A DNA stretch of 58,138 nucleotides from Pseudomonadota bacterium (GTDB taxonomy: Bacteria > Desulfobacterota > Syntrophia > Syntrophales > UBA5619): assembly GCA_018827585.1 (NCBI GenBank), contig JAHJXP010000016.1, positions 1 through 58,138 of the forward strand, given 5' to 3'. Positions 2,742 through 54,113 of this stretch are shown here, piece after piece. Below the pieces are notes generated by a model that had not been told where the DNA came from, did not search any database, and saw only the letters and a program-made list of their open reading frames with translations. The first letter of the stretch is position 1. The number at the start of each line of letters is the position of its first letter. The translations under genes were made by a program, and so were the position numbers.

Positions 2742-3869
2742 TTATATTTTCCAATCACGAACATTGCCAGGAAATGAGTATCTCTCCAGCACCGCCATGG
2801 CATCGGGCGCCAAACCTCGTATTTCCTTGCCGACCTCTCCGGAAAACTTCCTCAGAAAGTGATGAATCAAGAGCGGCAGGTCTCCCTTCCTATCCTTCAG
2901 AGGAGGAAGATTCACCGGAATAACGTTGATGCGGAAAAACAGATCTTCCCGGAAGGCGCCTTTTGCCACCATGGCCAGCAGGTTTATGTTCGTGGCCACC
3001 ACGAGGCGGATATCGATCGGAACAGGCCGGGTGTCGCCGATGGGGGTCAGCACCCGTTCCTGCAACACCCTGAGCAGTTTAGCCTGGGTGGCAAGGCTGA
3101 TATTGGAAATTTCGTCCAGAAAAAGGGTGCCCCCGTCAGCCACTTTAAAAAGCCCAGTCTTGCTGTGGACGGCCCCGGTGAAGGAGCCTTTTACGTGGCC
3201 GAACAGCTCGCTTTCCAACAGTGTTTCCGGGAGGGACGTGCAATCCACGGCCACGAAGGGATGGTCATGCCTGGGGCTGTTTTTGTGAACGGCGCGCGCC
3301 ACCAGCTCCTTGCCTGTCCCGCTTTCGCCGGTAATCAATACCGTACTGTCGGTGGGGGCCACCTGCATGATCCGGCGATAGACCTTCTGCATCTCGACGC
3401 TTTCGCCGACAAAGTCATCAAAACCATGGCCGGCGCTGAGTTTTTTCTTTGCGGAAAAACTCTCCATCGCCAATGTTTTATAGTCGACCGCCTTCCGCAC
3501 CTTGTCGATGATCAGCTCGGAAGTAAACGGCTTGGCAATGTAATCGAAAGCGCCGTTTTTCATGGCCTCCACAGCGGTATCTACGGTTGAATAGCCGGTG
3601 ATAATAACGACCGGCACCTCAGGTTGCAGTATCTTTATGGTTTTAAGGACCTCCATCCCGTCCATGCCCGGCATCTTCAGGTCCGTAATCACCACGTCGA
3701 AATCCTGTTCCTGGATTTTTTCTACGGCCGTCCGTCCGCTGGCCGAGGTGTCCACGTGATAGCCTTCGGCTGAAAGAATGCGGCGCATCCCCTCCCTGAT
3801 CACTTCCTCATCGTCAACCACGAGGAGATGATGCTTACCCTGATTTTTTTCTTGCTTGTCTATTTCCAT
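2742..3869 (-). CDS. sigma-54-dependent response regulator (REC + AAA+) without a DNA-binding HTH; last codons look frameshifted
   Basis: Receiver (LLVVDDEE..., DVVITDLKMPGMDG), Walker A GESGTGKE and a GSFTGA sigma-54 contact loop. The ORF ends ...PGNVRDWKI*. Skipping one base after CGT GA restores the canonical ...NVR-x-LENIIERAVVLK* with a stop at 2716-2718. No Fis-type HTH is encoded in any frame. Confidence 0.8.
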   Translation of the reverse strand: MEIDKQEKNQGKHHLLVVDDEEVIREGMRRILSAEGYHVDTSASGRTAVEKIQEQDFDVVITDLKMPGMDGMEVLKTIKILQPEVPVVIITGYSTVDTAVEAMKNGAFDYIAKPFTSELIIDKVRKAVDYKTLAMESFSAKKKLSAGHGFDDFVGESVEMQKVYRRIMQVAPTDSTVLITGESGTGKELVARAVHKNSPRHDHPFVAVDCTSLPETLLESELFGHVKGSFTGAVHSKTGLFKVADGGTLFLDEISNISLATQAKLLRVLQERVLTPIGDTRPVPIDIRLVVATNINLLAMVAKGAFREDLFFRINVIPVNLPPLKDRKGDLPLLIHHFLRKFSGEVGKEIRGLAPDAMAVLERYSFPGNVRDWKI

Positions 3870-4122
3870 AATTTGACCGCAGAAAAAACCGCTGTCGTCT
3901 TTTTCCCTGAGGAAGCCAAAAGCGCTTATCCGGTTGCGTTTCCCGCCATTTCTTCATTGCCTGACTATTCATCTGTTTTTTAAAAAGCACCTGCCCTTGG
4001 ATCGGTTGAGCATATGAAGATGGCGATTGAGTGTCAAGAAAAAATGGCGCAAGGCGCGTCGACAACATGTGCTGCGCGCACCGGCTTCTCGATTGTCGGA
4101 GATCTGTAAAATCATGATGTTT

Positions 4123-48351: not shown

Positions 48352-49599
48352 ATGAACAAGGATGTCATTCTCGTTCAAAAAAGAGAGCTGGAGAATCGCC
48401 TTCAGGAAACCTACATCGAGAGAAAGCTGTCGGTCCCCTGGGACCTGGGAGATGATCTAATCAAGGTCATCTCCGGACCGAGGCGAGCGGGAAAATCATT
48501 CTTTGCCATCCATCTTCTGCGGCAGACCGGTTCTTACGGGTACGTCAACTTCGATGATGAACGGCTGGCCGCCATCGAAGACTATGATGAAATCGTCAGC
48601 GCCGTGAACACCGTCTACGGCAATCCGCGTTATCTGCTTTTTGACGAAATCCAAAATCTTCCCCGCTGGGAACTTTTCGTCAATCGCCTCCAGCGCCAGG
48701 GTTTCCGGCTTCTGATCACCGGGAGCAATGCCAATCTGCTCTCTTCGGAACTGGCCTCGCACCTGACGGGTCGTCATGCCGTCTGCGTTCTGTTTCCCTT
48801 TTCTTTCGGCGAATATCTGGCGGTGTCGGGCGAGCAGCGGACGGCGGTCGAGAAAATGGCAGCTCTCGATGCCTACGCGGAGCAGGGCGGCTATCCGGAG
48901 CCCCTGCTCAAAAAGATCGACCGGCGCGATTACCTGCGCACCCTGCTGCAATCGACCCTGTACAAGGACATCGTCAAGCGGTTCCATATCCGGTCGGTTC
49001 AGGGAATCGAGGACCTGGCCCTGTATCTGCTTTCGAACATCGTCCGGGAATATTCCTTCAACGCCCTTTCCGGCGTGACGAAGTGCCGTAGCGTTCATAC
49101 GATCGACAAATATATCCGCCATCTTCAGGAGGCCTATCTGGTTTTTTCGCTCCCGCGCTTCTCCTTCAAATTGAAAAACCAGGCGGGCTACAACAAGAAA
49201 ATTTACTGCACCGACAACGGCTTGGCGGTTTCTGCGGGCTTCCGTTTCAGCGCCGACAGGGGGGCGCTCCATGAAAACCTCGCGGCTGTCGCTCTCAAAA
49301 AAGAGGAACTCGCCGGTCGGATTTCTCTGTTCTACTGGAAGCGCCCGCCAAACGGGGAAGTGGATTTTGTCGTCAAAGAGGGCCCGCGTGTGGCGCGGCT
49401 GATCCAGGTCTGCTCGGATATTTCGGACCCGAAGACCCTGAAGCGGGAGATGCGGGCGCTGATCAAGGCCTCTCAGGAGCTGCACTGCGACGAGCTGTGG
49501 CTGCTCAATGACCGGGAAGACCGGACGGAGACCATCCAATGGCATGGTATCGAGCGCCGGATTCGGCTGATGCCGTTGTGGCAATGGCTGGATCGATGA
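48352..49599 (+). CDS. AAA+ ATPase of the AAA_14 / DUF4143 family
   Basis: Walker A GPRRAGKS, Walker B LLFDEIQ, and a C-terminal DUF4143-type region. Confidence 0.8.
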   Translation: MNKDVILVQKRELENRLQETYIERKLSVPWDLGDDLIKVISGPRRAGKSFFAIHLLRQTGSYGYVNFDDERLAAIEDYDEIVSAVNTVYGNPRYLLFDEIQNLPRWELFVNRLQRQGFRLLITGSNANLLSSELASHLTGRHAVCVLFPFSFGEYLAVSGEQRTAVEKMAALDAYAEQGGYPEPLLKKIDRRDYLRTLLQSTLYKDIVKRFHIRSVQGIEDLALYLLSNIVREYSFNALSGVTKCRSVHTIDKYIRHLQEAYLVFSLPRFSFKLKNQAGYNKKIYCTDNGLAVSAGFRFSADRGALHENLAAVALKKEELAGRISLFYWKRPPNGEVDFVVKEGPRVARLIQVCSDISDPKTLKREMRALIKASQELHCDELWLLNDREDRTETIQWHGIERRIRLMPLWQWLDR

Positions 49600-49762
49600 A
49601 TCCGCCACTGCCAAGCACTTTTCGGGGCTCAAAGTCTTGCAGGGGCTTGCCGGGGAACGGTGGATCGCCGGCGTCGTTCTGTATGTGGGCGAGGCCGTGA
49701 TTCCCTTTGGTGAAAGGCTGTGGGCTGCGCCTATCTCCACCCTTTGGGAAAAAGAGGAATAG
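49600..49762 (+). pseudogene. 3' remnant (~54 codons) of a second DUF4143-type ATPase gene
   Basis: The frame reads ...SATAKHFSGLKVLQGLAGERWIAGVVLYVGEAVIPFGERLWAAPISTLWEKEE*, the typical C-terminal end of this family, with no upstream body. Confidence 0.5.
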
Positions 49763-49763
49763 A

Positions 49764-49862
49764 AAATTCGAGATCCGCATCAGCAAGGGATACCGCCTGA
49801 CTTTGTGCCTCGACAAAGGCGTGGTCGAACTGCGTCGTGTAGGCGGATATCCTGAGGGATGA
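49764..49862 (+). pseudogene. 3' remnant of a RelE/ParE-type toxin gene
   Basis: KFEIRISKGYRLTLCLDKGVVELRRVGGYPEG* resembles the C-terminal beta-strands of RelE/ParE toxins (...RIG.YRL.Y..d...v.il.vg...). There is no start codon and no N-terminal part. Confidence 0.35.
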
Positions 49863-50034
49863 AGGATAAATGGCGCTGTTTAGTTTTGCGTGCATGTGAC
49901 TTTTTTCCCGCCGGGGTTGTATATCAAATAAAGGGAAGTTTCCGACTACCCGGCGACAAACGGGGCGCCTCAATCTGGTAAGAATGGAACTTGTTTGGGG
50001 ATGACAAATAGTTTTAATGGTTTATATTCATGAA

Positions 50035-50531
50035 TGAATTCAAATCCGTAAGTGCGCCACGAGGCTGCACAAGAGATGAGGGTAGGTCCCTCGAAGTCGG
50101 CTTGCAGGAGCGGGCTTCAAACCACCTTAAGCTGCATTGGTAAAGAGCCAATGTGGTGAGCGTTAAGGAAAAGGCATGGCAAAAGACCATGTCAGGTGAG
50201 GATCAGGGAGGCGAGCGCAAGCGAACTACTTCTGAGATGTCGAAATGAATTGGATGATGTCAAAACTGGGGGACTTACGGATCTCCAGGATAAGTTCAAG
50301 GGGGACCTGTTTACTGCTTGGGCGACTTCGCGATCGATGCAGAGGGGGCAACGGGAACAGGGGGAGGGAACGTTTATCTGCAGTAACCACCGCGGCCTTG
50401 GGATTTCCGGGTCGGTCTCCAAGAGAAACTGTGATCTGCCTTAGCAATTGGCTTTTCCCATCATGGAGTGATGAACCCACGATAGCGGAGAAATTTACGA
50501 AGGGGATCCGATTTCTCGGCCCCCCTTTTTT
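50035..50531 (+). ncRNA. candidate ~0.5-kb structured non-coding RNA of unknown class (or a degenerate group II intron 5' fragment)
   Basis: Promoter-like ATGACA-16 nt-TATATT (50001-50028) and a terminator GGGGAUCCGA-UUUC-UCGGCCCC + U6 (50502-50531). No credible ORF. Long helices at 50125-50168, 50173-50193, 50078-50092 and 50266-50288. GUGCG sits at 50052. Confidence 0.35.
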
Positions 50532-50602
50532 CGGTGTAGTCGAATTGGAGGCTGAAAAACGGAAACCGGGCGCTTGCCGCGCATTAACACCGGAGGTTCC
50601 GC

Positions 50603-50634
50603 TTGACAATCAATTATATTAAGACTTATATAAT
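50603..50634 (+). promoter_or_regulatory. sigma-70-type promoter (TTGACA-17 nt-TTATAT/TATAAT) ending 6-9 nt before the toxin ATG (leaderless mRNA predicted)
   Basis: Perfect -35 at 50603-50608. An overlapping -10 lies at 50626-50634. There is no room for an RBS before the ATG at 50640. Confidence 0.5.
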
Positions 50635-50639
50635 AAGCC

Positions 50640-50877
50640 ATGTACGACATCGATTGGCGGGCCAAAGCGTACAGACAGCTTTACAAAATCCGCAGCCGGC
50701 AAATCCGGCAGGAGATTTACGATGCAGCGGAAACGCTCCGGCACTGGCCGGACTGCCGGAACGTGAAGGCCTTGATCAGCCACGAATACGGTTTCCGGAT
50801 GCGCGTCGGCAACTGGCGTATCCTGTTCGATGTCGAGGATCACATCAGGATCATCATGATCCAGGAGGTCAAGAAAC

Positions 50878-50897
<20 letters not shown>
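50640..50897 (+). CDS. RelE/ParE-superfamily type II toxin
   Basis: 85 aa: ...ALISHEYGFRMRVGNWRILFDVEDHIRIIMIQEVKKRDERTY, the canonical RelE/ParE C-terminal pattern. It is toxin-first, as in HigBA. Confidence 0.8.
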
Positions 50898-51436
<539 letters not shown>

Positions 51437-51603
51437 TGACGCGATCGCCATCATTGAAATCGCAAGACGCGAAGGGGAGACATAACCATCCCGTAGGTGC
51501 TGAGGGGTCGTCTCCCCGTTGCCATTCCCTTCCCAATCGGGCGCTTGCCGTTTTCTATTTGCACTTCCGGGAACCAAATCCGGCAGATGTTTACACCTCC
51601 CCA

Positions 51604-51639
51604 TTGACATGAAGCGAATAGCCCATATAATCGCTTCAT
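51604..51639 (+). promoter_or_regulatory. consensus sigma-70 promoter TTGACA-16 nt-TATAAT embraced by a 9-bp palindrome ATGAAGCGA / TCGCTTCAT
   Basis: Both hexamers are perfect. The palindrome spans the spacer and the -10 (operator-like). It lies 26 nt upstream of the Fic-stub ATG. Confidence 0.55.
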
Positions 51640-51664
51640 AATATGAAGCAGTAAAGGGGTCAAA

Positions 51665-51799
51665 ATGCCTCAATACCTTTGGGAGCGTCCCGAGTGGACA
51701 CGCTTCCGTTGGAGAAACGAGCTTCTCGCACTCGGGATACTGAAACAAAATCCCGGCAGGGGGCGGAGCGCAAGCTACGATTTGAATTGGCCGGATTAG
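51665..51799 (+). pseudogene. 5' stub (44 codons) of a Fic-family gene (DUF4172-type N-terminus)
   Basis: MPQYLWERPEWTRFRWRNELL... matches the ...W..P.WP.FRW... start of Fic/DOC N-terminal domains. The frame stops at 51797-51799, and no Fic core (HxFx[D/E]GNGR) follows in any frame. Confidence 0.35.
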
Positions 51800-51932
51800 C
51801 GGGGCGAATCGCTGCCGAAAGACAGATCCTCATTTCCAAAACCGCCAATCCCGCGGAAAATGAAGCCATGATGTCCACAAAACTCAGAGGATTCCTGGCG
51901 CATCTGCTGAAAATCCCATTTTCCGCCGACGC

Positions 51933-52466
51933 ATGGATCATGACCAGGAAAGAGAGATCGTCGCTTCCGTTCTCAAAGGGGACCGCGAGGCCTACAAGAC
52001 CTCCGTCTTCAATCTCGCCTACCGGATGACCGGCAGCCTCCCCGAGGCGGAGGACCTGGCCTAGGAGACCTTTCTCCGCGCCTACGAAAGCCTGTGGTGC
52101 TGGCGCCCGGACAAGAGTTTCTTCGTCTGGCTCTACACGATCGCCCTCAACGGAATCCGGAACCATCTCAAAAAGAAACGGGGATCGGAAACCCGCGGCG
52201 CCGACTGGGCGGAAGAAATCGAGCGGGAGAGCGCCGAGGCCCGGGCGGCGGACCAGCCGGAGGGGATCCTCCTGGAGGACGAGAAGCAGAGAAGGCTTCA
52301 GGCGTGCCTGCTGAAGCTCCCGGCGGACCTGCGGGAGGCGGTCGTCCTGCGCTTCTACGACGATCGCTCCTTCGAAGAGATCGCCCGGATCTGCGGCATT
52401 TCGCTCAGCTCCGCCAAGATGCGCGTCTACCGCGGGATCGAAAAGCTGAAGGGGATGATGGAATAA
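51933..52466 (+). pseudogene. ECF-type sigma-70 factor gene interrupted by an in-frame TAG at codon 44
   Basis: MDHDQEREIVASVLKGDREAYKTSVFNLAYRMTGSLPEAEDLA-TAG-ETFLRAYESL...FVWLYTIALNGIRNHL...LREAVVLRFYDDRSFEEIARICGISLSSAKMRVYRGIEKLKGMME*. Regions 2 and 4 are intact. The TAG (52062-52064) replaces the conserved Gln of AEDLxQETF. Confidence 0.75.
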
Positions 52467-52526
52467 TCGGGCGCCGCCGCACCGTCATGGCGCTGATGGA
52501 ATTTGGTATTATACTCACGGCTTGTA

Positions 52527-52561
52527 CAATATGAAGATTGAACTTGCAGATTGCACCATTT
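52527..52561 (+). repeat. 35-nt direct repeat, copy 1 (CAATATGAAGATTGAACTTGCAGATTGCACCATTT)
   Basis: Identical 35-mer at 55764-55798. It contains an ATG plus nine shared codons (MKIELADCTI), and here it is preceded by TTGGTA-16 nt-TACAAT. Confidence 0.8.
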
Positions 52562-52713
52562 CCTGCTGTGGGTGCGGAGCATTATCTGATCCGCGACAAG
52601 ATCCAGATCTTAAGGAACTGCAATTTCAGCAAGATACACTCGGCCAGCACTGCGGACTTCGCAATATTGGAGCAAAAAAGGCCGAGAAATTGGTTTCTTG
52701 CTCATTTTCATCC

Positions 52714-52743
52714 TTGACATTTCATTAATTTATTATTTATGAT
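52714..52743 (+). promoter_or_regulatory. sigma-70-type promoter TTGACA-18 nt-TATGAT ending 6 nt before the abiEi ATG (leaderless mRNA predicted)
   Basis: Perfect -35 and a good -10. Only CAGTTC separates the -10 from the ATG at 52750. Confidence 0.5.
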
Positions 52744-52749
52744 CAGTTC

Positions 52750-53349
52750 ATGAAATACAATGATTTGGTTTCTGCCATCAAAAGTCCCATATTTTCTCTG
52801 AATGACCTGGCATTGTCGGGGCTTGACGTCTTCGACTACCAACTCAGCCTCTGGGTGAAGAAGGGGCATCTGATCAGACTCAAAAACGGCCTGTACGCCT
52901 TCAGCCGGGACAAGGAAAAGCTTCAGGGCGAGGGCATCGCCTTCCTGCTATATCAGCCGAGCTATCTGAGCCTCGAAACTGCTTTGGCCTGGTACGGCTT
53001 CATTCCGGAGATCGTGTACGCCTATACCAGCATCACCGCCAAAACCACCCGGACCTTTGAGAACGCATGCGGTCGCTTCATCTACCGGCACGTAAAAAGC
53101 GAACTCTTCTGGGGATATGTCCAGATGAATACGGATCACGGCCCCTACCTCTTGGCCGAGCCGGAAAAGGCTCTCCTCGATTATTTCTACCTCAACCTAT
53201 CCCGGATCGATAACGAGGAGGATTTCGAAAATATCCGCCTGAACGAGGAGGAGATGGAAAAGACGCTCGACAAGGGGAAATTAATCAAATATCTTGATGC
53301 CTTCGGCGTAAAAAAAATGGAGAGATGGGCAAAGCGATGCTTACCGTAG
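52750..53349 (+). CDS. abiEi: AbiEi-family (type IV TA) antitoxin / transcriptional regulator
   Basis: N-terminal winged-helix region (FSLNDLALSG...LWVKKGHLIRLKNGLYAF) and SYLSLETALAWYGFIPE, typical of AbiEi antitoxins. It overlaps the downstream AbiEii gene. Confidence 0.75.
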   Translation: MKYNDLVSAIKSPIFSLNDLALSGLDVFDYQLSLWVKKGHLIRLKNGLYAFSRDKEKLQGEGIAFLLYQPSYLSLETALAWYGFIPEIVYAYTSITAKTTRTFENACGRFIYRHVKSELFWGYVQMNTDHGPYLLAEPEKALLDYFYLNLSRIDNEEDFENIRLNEEEMEKTLDKGKLIKYLDAFGVKKMERWAKRCLP

Positions 53350-54113
53350 AACAGATTGCCGGCCATTTTCCGCCGCCCCTGCGGCAGAGAAATCCCCGGG
53401 GCATGCTGGTCGAGTATCTTCAGTATGAACTGCTCGATTCGCTGTTCAAGAATCACGCTGCATCGGCGTTGAGTTTCATCGGCGGAACCGCAATCCGAAT
53501 CCTTCACGACAGCGATCGTTTCTCCGAGGATCTGGATTTCGACAACTTCCGACTTTCTTTCGCCCAGTTCGAGGAGCTGCTGAAAACGGCCTGCCGGGAT
53601 ATGCAATACAAGGGTTTTCTGGTCGAATACCGGATCGTTGAAAAGGGTGCCTGGCACTGCTATATCCGCTTTCCGGAAATCCTCCATCGGGCGGGACTGG
53701 CGTCGGATGCCGGGCGGAAGATCCTGATCCGAATCGACAGCGAGGAGAAAGAAAGGCTCTACGAGCCGAAAAAGGCATTCCTGAATAAATTCGCCGTGTA
53801 TCGGCAGATCCTTGCGGCGCCGGCCGGGATTCTCCTCGCCCAGAAGATGATGACCGTCCTCTACCGGAAAAGGGAGAAGGGAAGGGATCTCTATGATGTT
53901 TCCTTTCTGACGGGATTTGCCGATCCCGATTTTGACTACATCGGAAGGATCATCGGCCTCGATCGGGAGGAATTTCTGAACCGTTTCGACGAGAGGCTTT
54001 CGGAACTGGATCTCAATTTTCTGGCCCGTGATGTCGAACCGTTCCTCTTTTCCACGGAGCAGCAGGGGCGGATCGTCACTTTCCGCGATTATTGGCGCAG
54101 CAAACGAGGATAG
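53325..54113 (+). CDS. abiEii: AbiEii/AbiGii-family nucleotidyltransferase toxin (DUF1814)
   Basis: FIGGTAIRILHDSDRFSEDLDFD nucleotidyltransferase motif and ...KGRDLYDV.... The start may be the ATG at 53337. Confidence 0.8.
   Translation: MGKAMLTVEQIAGHFPPPLRQRNPRGMLVEYLQYELLDSLFKNHAASALSFIGGTAIRILHDSDRFSEDLDFDNFRLSFAQFEELLKTACRDMQYKGFLVEYRIVEKGAWHCYIRFPEILHRAGLASDAGRKILIRIDSEEKERLYEPKKAFLNKFAVYRQILAAPAGILLAQKMMTVLYRKREKGRDLYDVSFLTGFADPDFDYIGRIIGLDREEFLNRFDERLSELDLNFLARDVEPFLFSTEQQGRIVTFRDYWRSKRG

Follow-up and report, generated by a model that had tools for sequence, protein, structure and literature searches.

Which part of the non-coding DNA in front of the ParE/HTH cassette belongs to a structured RNA, and to what kind of RNA? 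In the window (the whole 58,138-nt stretch of DNA that was analyzed), the region in question lies downstream of a gene for an AAA_14/DUF4143 ATPase and upstream of genes for a ParE-family toxin (ParE_toxin) and an HTH_3 antitoxin. A preliminary description had read it as a single unit of ~500 nt, running from a promoter to a terminator, and had offered two options: a decayed 5′ fragment of a group II intron or an unclassified large structured RNA. The first of these is borne out by an Rfam match, near-identical full-length relatives, covariation, and EBS1-IBS1 pairing. We put the probability at roughly 90% that the segment from 50052 to ~50326 is the dead 5′ fragment of a retrohomed group II intron. 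What had been framed as one unit from promoter to terminator is made up of three pieces with no relation to one another: DNA of the target site, the stub of the intron, and an orphan spacer that contains a terminator-like hairpin. The kind of object is already known: it is an ordinary genomic fossil, and well understood.

An intron domain I and its 5′ junction

At the gathering threshold, the Rfam search recommended in the preliminary description returned just two matches in the whole window, a tRNA and RF01999 (group-II-D1D4-2). The latter lies at 50078-50197 on the forward strand and spans the model from end to end (1-118 of 118) with 121.6 bits (E = 1e-24; the gathering cut-off of this family is 36 bits). 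A permissive rescan of 49000-53500 (E <= 10) gave nothing further of relevance and no other family. When 49900-50640 was searched against 60 related genomes using blastn, 13 of them (the window's own counted) gave matches, which start at 50035-50053 and all end at ~50324; further copies were obtained by scanning the genome_contigs collection with the reverse transcriptase (RT) of an intact relative. The best among the copies fetched is L046 (CAISJV010000064.1, from a MAG of an uncultured delta proteobacterium), whose identity to the window is 98.3% over 50043-50329; L025 is 86% identical to the stub. With homologues confined to 50043-50329 and no other Rfam family present, the reading as an unclassified large structured RNA finds no support.

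The four helices singled out in the preliminary description are real. Three of them (50078-50092, 50125-50168, and 50173-50193) are helices of RF01999, and the fourth (50266-50288) lies in the continuation of the match. The covariation analysis that had been suggested was run with RNAalifold on the window and 11 homologues from several phyla (plasmid copies from Priestia, Mesorhizobium, Acinetobacter, E. coli, Streptomyces, Burkholderia, and Sulfobacillus included), and compensatory double changes were found in 37 of 57 pairs, touching all four helices. This covariation supports an intron domain I, not a new RNA. On folding, 50052-50325 reaches -99.5 kcal/mol (z = -3.6), a stability that none of 200 shuffles equaled.

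The GUGCG at 50052-50056, already suspected of being an intron start, is where the intron truly begins: the 5′ ends of >15 copies (GUGUG, GUGCG, or UUGCG) align with it, and the upstream flanks diverge at once. Group II introns recognize their targets through a defining interaction between EBS1 and IBS1. Here, EBS1 (UUACGG, 50275-50280) sits in the loop of the domain I hairpin at 50266-50288 (forward strand), and all six of its bases form Watson-Crick pairs with IBS1 (CCGUAA), the last six bases of the 5′ exon (50046-50051, CCGTAA in the DNA). The pairing covaries among copies (EBS1/IBS1 are CAACGA/UCGUUG in L011, UGAUAA/UUAUCA in L052, and CAGUAA/UUACUG in L055; L072 is a further case). The 6/6 pairing, together with this covariation, shows that the intron came in by retrohoming and that the 5′ junction is authentic.

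Upstream of the junction, what independent copies have in common is confined to ~9-16 nt (type TTTCAA(T/A)-xxGTAA), and it is on this short common motif that we identify 50036-50051 (forward strand) as the remnant of the homing site. The TTCAAAT that precedes IBS1 resembles the TTTCAA(T/A) of the other copies and is probably IBS2. A mobile group II intron would have retrohomed into an intergenic site of a toxin–antitoxin (TA)/defence island, its RNA reverse-splicing into the DNA at ...UUCAAAU CCGUAA/ (here and below, a slash marks the junction), guided by the pairing of the EBS1 loop with IBS1.

The breakpoint and the missing remainder

None of 100 homologue matches extends beyond 50329, and all of them stop at 50324-50329. 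Aligned to each other, the window and L046 both read ...GGGCGAC, after which the window continues with TTCGCGATCG and L046 with ATCCGGCATAAAGG; in a wider alignment, both read ...TTGGGCGAC, followed by TTCGCGATCGATG in the window and by ATCCGGCATAAAGG in L046. This base-level divergence places the breakpoint within 50327-50333. The 3′-truncated intron, with its GUGCG and proximal domain I, occupies 50052-50326 on the forward strand. It is ~275 nt long, or up to 281 nt if homology reaches 50332, and keeps approximately the first 15% of a ~1.84-kb element, including about two-thirds of domain I; 85% is gone. Homology, covariation, and excess structure all end at ~50326-50332, so the single ~500-nt unit does not hold together. 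The earlier observation that the ~590 nt from GUGCG to the next ORF matches the size of domains I-III is a coincidence; only proximal domain I (~275-281 nt) is present.

The distal part of domain I, domains II-III, and the 3′ splice site are missing, the sequence past 50324-50329 being unrelated to that of the relatives. The absence of a domain V and of an RT, remarked on from the outset, is confirmed: RF00029 (domains V/VI) has no match in 49000-53500 at E <= 10 and none on this contig (the five matches in the genome are all on other contigs), and no RT ORF was found in the region, either in the ORF list or using Pfam. A search of the stub's own genome (98% complete) for a cognate RT found none, the best candidates being partial segments at 37-39% identity. 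Given that distal domain I, domains II-IV, D5/D6, and a cognate RT are all lacking, the stub can neither splice nor move, and there is no helper in the genome.

Two other places in this genome deserve mention. At C4:7281-7643 there is an RT-like segment with 37% identity to intron RT residues 150-278, which lies within a 1756-aa open frame that may encode a large RT-domain fusion protein. The other came from a search of the genome with the 3′ portions of L012, L024, L025, and L009, which matched nothing except C29:117-232 (L002:117-232). That match is a 5′-truncated D5-D6 piece, 91% identical to a mini-intron of the L016 type (described below). The 3′ end of this piece forms a proper junction (...CCCGGCGAT/GAACC), which an AAAGGAG ribosome binding site (RBS) and the ATG of a gene follow after ~21 nt; its contig begins just 116 nt upstream of the piece. 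The domain I of the L016 type is only 76% identical to that of the window. The C29 piece is of another sub-lineage, and the genome has no matching 3′ half.

The intron could, in principle, be split or expanded rather than truncated, with the TA cassette inside domain IV and D5/D6 downstream, or with trans-splicing to a 3′ piece such as C29:117-232. The C29 fragment does have its proper 3′ junction just before the RBS of a gene, and cargo in domain IV is conceivable given that the RT ORF of full-length relatives starts ~470 nt after the 5′ end. However, there is no D5/D6 on this contig, the break is inside domain I and not domain IV, distal domain I and domains II and III are missing too, the C29 piece differs in sub-lineage, and no coding 5′ exon lies upstream to be joined. 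We consider a split intron highly improbable, and the first two of these points led us to reject the TA cassette as domain IV cargo. Also rejected was a complete ORF-less mini-intron with a divergent 3′ part, in that copies 86-98% identical to the stub stop matching it abruptly at 50324-50329, yet keep matching each other.

It is important to ask whether the junction at ~50326 could be a chimera, made during metagenome assembly by way of repeated intron sequence. The genome is a MAG of 292 contigs, and the Logan contigs of one run (SRR26275510; L127 ends and L123 starts there) break inside the stub, at 50101-50207, as they would at a repeat. Such a break is expected if there are further copies of this domain I segment in the community. 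For comparison, contigs were fetched on the basis of identical ParE and ATPase proteins: an NCBI MAG contig of 55.6 kb (GCA_018825885.1) and Logan contigs of the runs SRR26275510 and SRR10598176. All of these independent contigs are 100% identical to the window, junction and spacer included, and the Logan contigs that start at 50207 and 50265 (SRR26275510 and SRR10598176) run via the breakpoint and the spacer into the TA genes. Because the intron-spacer-ParE join is found at 100% identity in three other assemblies, it is not the artefact of one assembler, although the Logan runs may share, or be related to, the samples of the MAG and show only that the junction is independent of the assembler. 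Moreover, no second copy of the sequence beyond the break was found in the own genome. We give a chimeric join very little credence.

Returning to a truncated intron, a later rearrangement would have taken away everything 3′ of intron position ~275-281, that is, the distal part of domain I, domains II-IV together with the RT gene, and the catalytic domains V/VI. We infer this order of events, and that the loss came about by deletion or recombination. As to what produced the breakpoint and the spacer, no IS end, repeat, or empty-site allele (...TTCAAATCCGTAA/...) was found.

The spacer, its hairpin, and the ParE/HTH promoter

The DNA at 50334-50611 is orphan non-coding DNA and not a recognizable decayed gene. 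No homologue was found in the own genome (blastn and tblastx), in the 60 relatives, all fetched loci, and plasmids and phages (blastn), or in metagenome contigs (exact 32-mer scan); a tblastx match to C29:713-840 was weak, with inconsistent offsets, and was treated as compositional. The preliminary description had seen no credible ORF here, and we agree. The overlapping ORFs (76-127 aa, both strands) gave nothing using Pfam at E <= 10, tblastn of both long frames gave nothing better than E = 0.4, and GC by codon position is flat (0.50-0.57) in all six frames, compared with ~0.60/0.36/0.71 in neighboring genes. It is the lack of homologues, the lack of any Pfam or tblastn signal, and the flat codon GC that mark the spacer as orphan non-coding DNA. 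A decayed protein-coding gene, which the preliminary description had named as one outcome that would overturn its proposal, was not found by translated searches. Those overlapping ORFs on both strands are what speaks for it; the same Pfam, tblastn, and codon GC results stand against it, and the 5′ half of the region is demonstrably intron RNA. The decayed gene is, in our judgment, scarcely credible.

Folding of 50326-50535 is no better than that of shuffles (z = +1.22). A canonical G-quadruplex motif, GGGGGCAACGGGAACAGGGGGAGGG, lies within the spacer at 50344-50368 (forward strand), shortly past the intron breakpoint. Further along, the GC hairpin followed by T6 that had been pointed out previously does exist at 50499-50531 (forward strand; -16.1 kcal/mol, z = -3.0). 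A simple terminator scanner missed it because of its internal bulge; it resembles a terminator, and its function as such is putative, being suggested by the predicted fold. The cassette's own sequence (promoter/operator) starts past the spacer, at 50612-50640 (forward strand), given that only these last 29 nt before the ParE ATG recur at a homologous TA locus, where they are 86% identical to the region upstream of the ParE homologue in G052 (L027). The possibility that the TA cassette travels with the spacer was rejected, as ParE homologues in relatives have nothing beyond this promoter in common with it. In the history that we propose, ~280 nt of unrelated non-coding DNA would have come to follow the stub, with the terminator-like hairpin near its end and the ParE/HTH promoter next.

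At the other end of the supposed unit, the sigma-70-like ATGACA-16-TATATT (50001-50028, forward strand) fared less well. The hexamers are present (10/12 match), but their frequency is that of chance, with one site found and 0.9 +/- 0.9 expected per 1.5 kb from shuffles. The site lies outside the intron, in 5′ exon DNA that is not conserved; beyond ~16 nt the flanks of other copies are unrelated.

These two signals do flank the stretch, and one could suppose that 50029-50531 is a functional noncoding RNA of ~0.5 kb, transcribed from a promoter at 50001-50028 to a terminator at 50499-50531 and exapted from the stub to serve the TA cassette, perhaps as an insulator or a cis-regulatory leader. According to one speculation, 5′ remnants of introns that are conserved close to transcribed genes could take on cis-regulatory roles (Toro et al. 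2014, PMC4181065), and the stub shows little decay, being 98% identical to a relative that looks active. Against this, the promoter match is at chance level, the 3′ half folds no better than shuffled sequence (z = +1.22) and gave no homologue in any search, and intron ancestry fully accounts for the conservation and covariation. The 98% identity itself points to recent arrival and not to long retention under selection. An exapted RNA is therefore, in our view, decidedly unlikely. We regard as very unlikely, too, that the stub has been co-opted as a leader or insulator RNA shielding ParE/HTH from read-through, or as a pairing module for CCGUAA targets; such an RNA would run from the promoter-like site to the 50499-50531 hairpin and would keep its EBS1 loop intact within a compactly folded domain I.

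Relatives of the lineage and known systems

Two of the relatives, L046 and L072, are intact at ~1.84 kb, and each has D1D4-2, a 430-aa ORF, and D5/D6. The RT of another, L025 (G025:C187), scores 434 bits against TIGR04416 (group II intron reverse transcriptase/maturase). The lineage, with its RT/maturase of ~430 aa, is widespread in Smithella/Syntrophales-like “delta-proteobacterial” MAGs and occurs also in rhizobia, Bryobacterales, and others. As to the class of the intron, the literature on D1D4 motifs held nothing decisive. The stub resembles the full-length copies L046, L072, L055, and L025 in that the first ~275 nt are 86-98% identical, and it has in common with them a 5′ end that reads GUGCG, the RF01999 block, an EBS1 loop at the corresponding position, and a target of the TTTCAA-N-xxGTAA type. 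Unlike the stub, these copies go on via distal domain I, domains II and III, the RT/maturase (TIGR04416), and D5/D6. In two plasmid homologues that were inspected (E. coli and Burkholderia), no intron RT gene is annotated, and IS transposase genes lie downstream.

A mildly interesting by-product of the search is a set of ORF-less derivatives of this intron family (~640 nt), in which D1D4-2 is followed by D5/D6 with no RT. They occur in sister genomes (L016:1500-2140 in G028:C119; L015 in G024:C6, reverse strand; L012:1-555 in G018:C134; L024:1-479 in G025:C288) and on a Methylomonas plasmid (CP157007, L009:~3490-4110). Their D5/D6 score 47-55 bits and start ~410-540 nt past the start of D1D4-2 (about 520-540 in complete copies). 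L015 and L016 are near-identical, but the species that carry them and their flanks differ, which suggests that they moved recently. Some of the MAGs lack a detected cognate RT: G024 and G028, both incomplete, have no RT >38% identical to that of the lineage. ORF-less bacterial introns have been described as rare (PMC4424553). The minis are like the stub in having a domain I of the RF01999 family and no RT ORF, and their overall size is near that of the 0.5-kb unit originally proposed. However, they keep distal domain I through domain III and D5/D6, where the window has unrelated sequence and no D5/D6; the window positions that correspond to their D5/D6 (~50490-50620) fall at the end of the spacer and in the ParE promoter.

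Two further copies show other arrangements. L013 (G009:C1:~126330-126710) is internally deleted, with domain I to approximately position 210 joined to the last ~53 RT codons and D5/D6, which is a route of decay other than the 3′ truncation seen in the window. L054 (CAWIRY010000098.1) has two 5′ ends of the lineage, at 793 and 2626, which point the same way and are separated by ~1.8 kb. Immediately before the second stands ...CGCCACTCAAC, a sequence similar to an intron 3′ end, and this suggests that the copies are tandem or nested.

The use of this analysis goes little further than correct annotation, in that a candidate “new large structured RNA” is replaced by a known fossil. In addition, retrohoming into the TA/defence island is dated as recent by the 98% identity of the stub to an intact intron in another MAG. 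The stub also illustrates the usual decay of bacterial group II introns, in which the 3′ end is lost. A 3′-truncated remnant is the commonest fate of such introns. Most bacterial copies are truncated or inactivated (PMC4424553), and fragmentation typically costs these introns their 3′ terminus (Toro et al. 2014, PMC4181065).

The closest described parallel in this respect is FRE652, a 5′ remnant of 652 nt with intact EBS sequences (Toro et al. 2014, PMC4181065), and the stub can be seen as a shorter, younger example of its class. Both keep the 5′ end and the exon-binding sequence and have lost the 3′ terminus, both are intergenic among accessory or mobile genes, and FRE652, too, carries the ncRNA annotation ‘group II catalytic intron D1-D4’. 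They differ in extent, as the stub ends within domain I at ~275 nt, whereas FRE652 reaches domain IV at 652 nt. They differ also in sub-lineage, with RmInt1-bearing Sinorhizobium plasmids matching the stub over just ~67 nt at 79%. Finally, the two seem to differ in age: FRE652 has been described as ancient and conserved (PMC4181065), and the stub, at 98% identity to an intact copy, looks recent.
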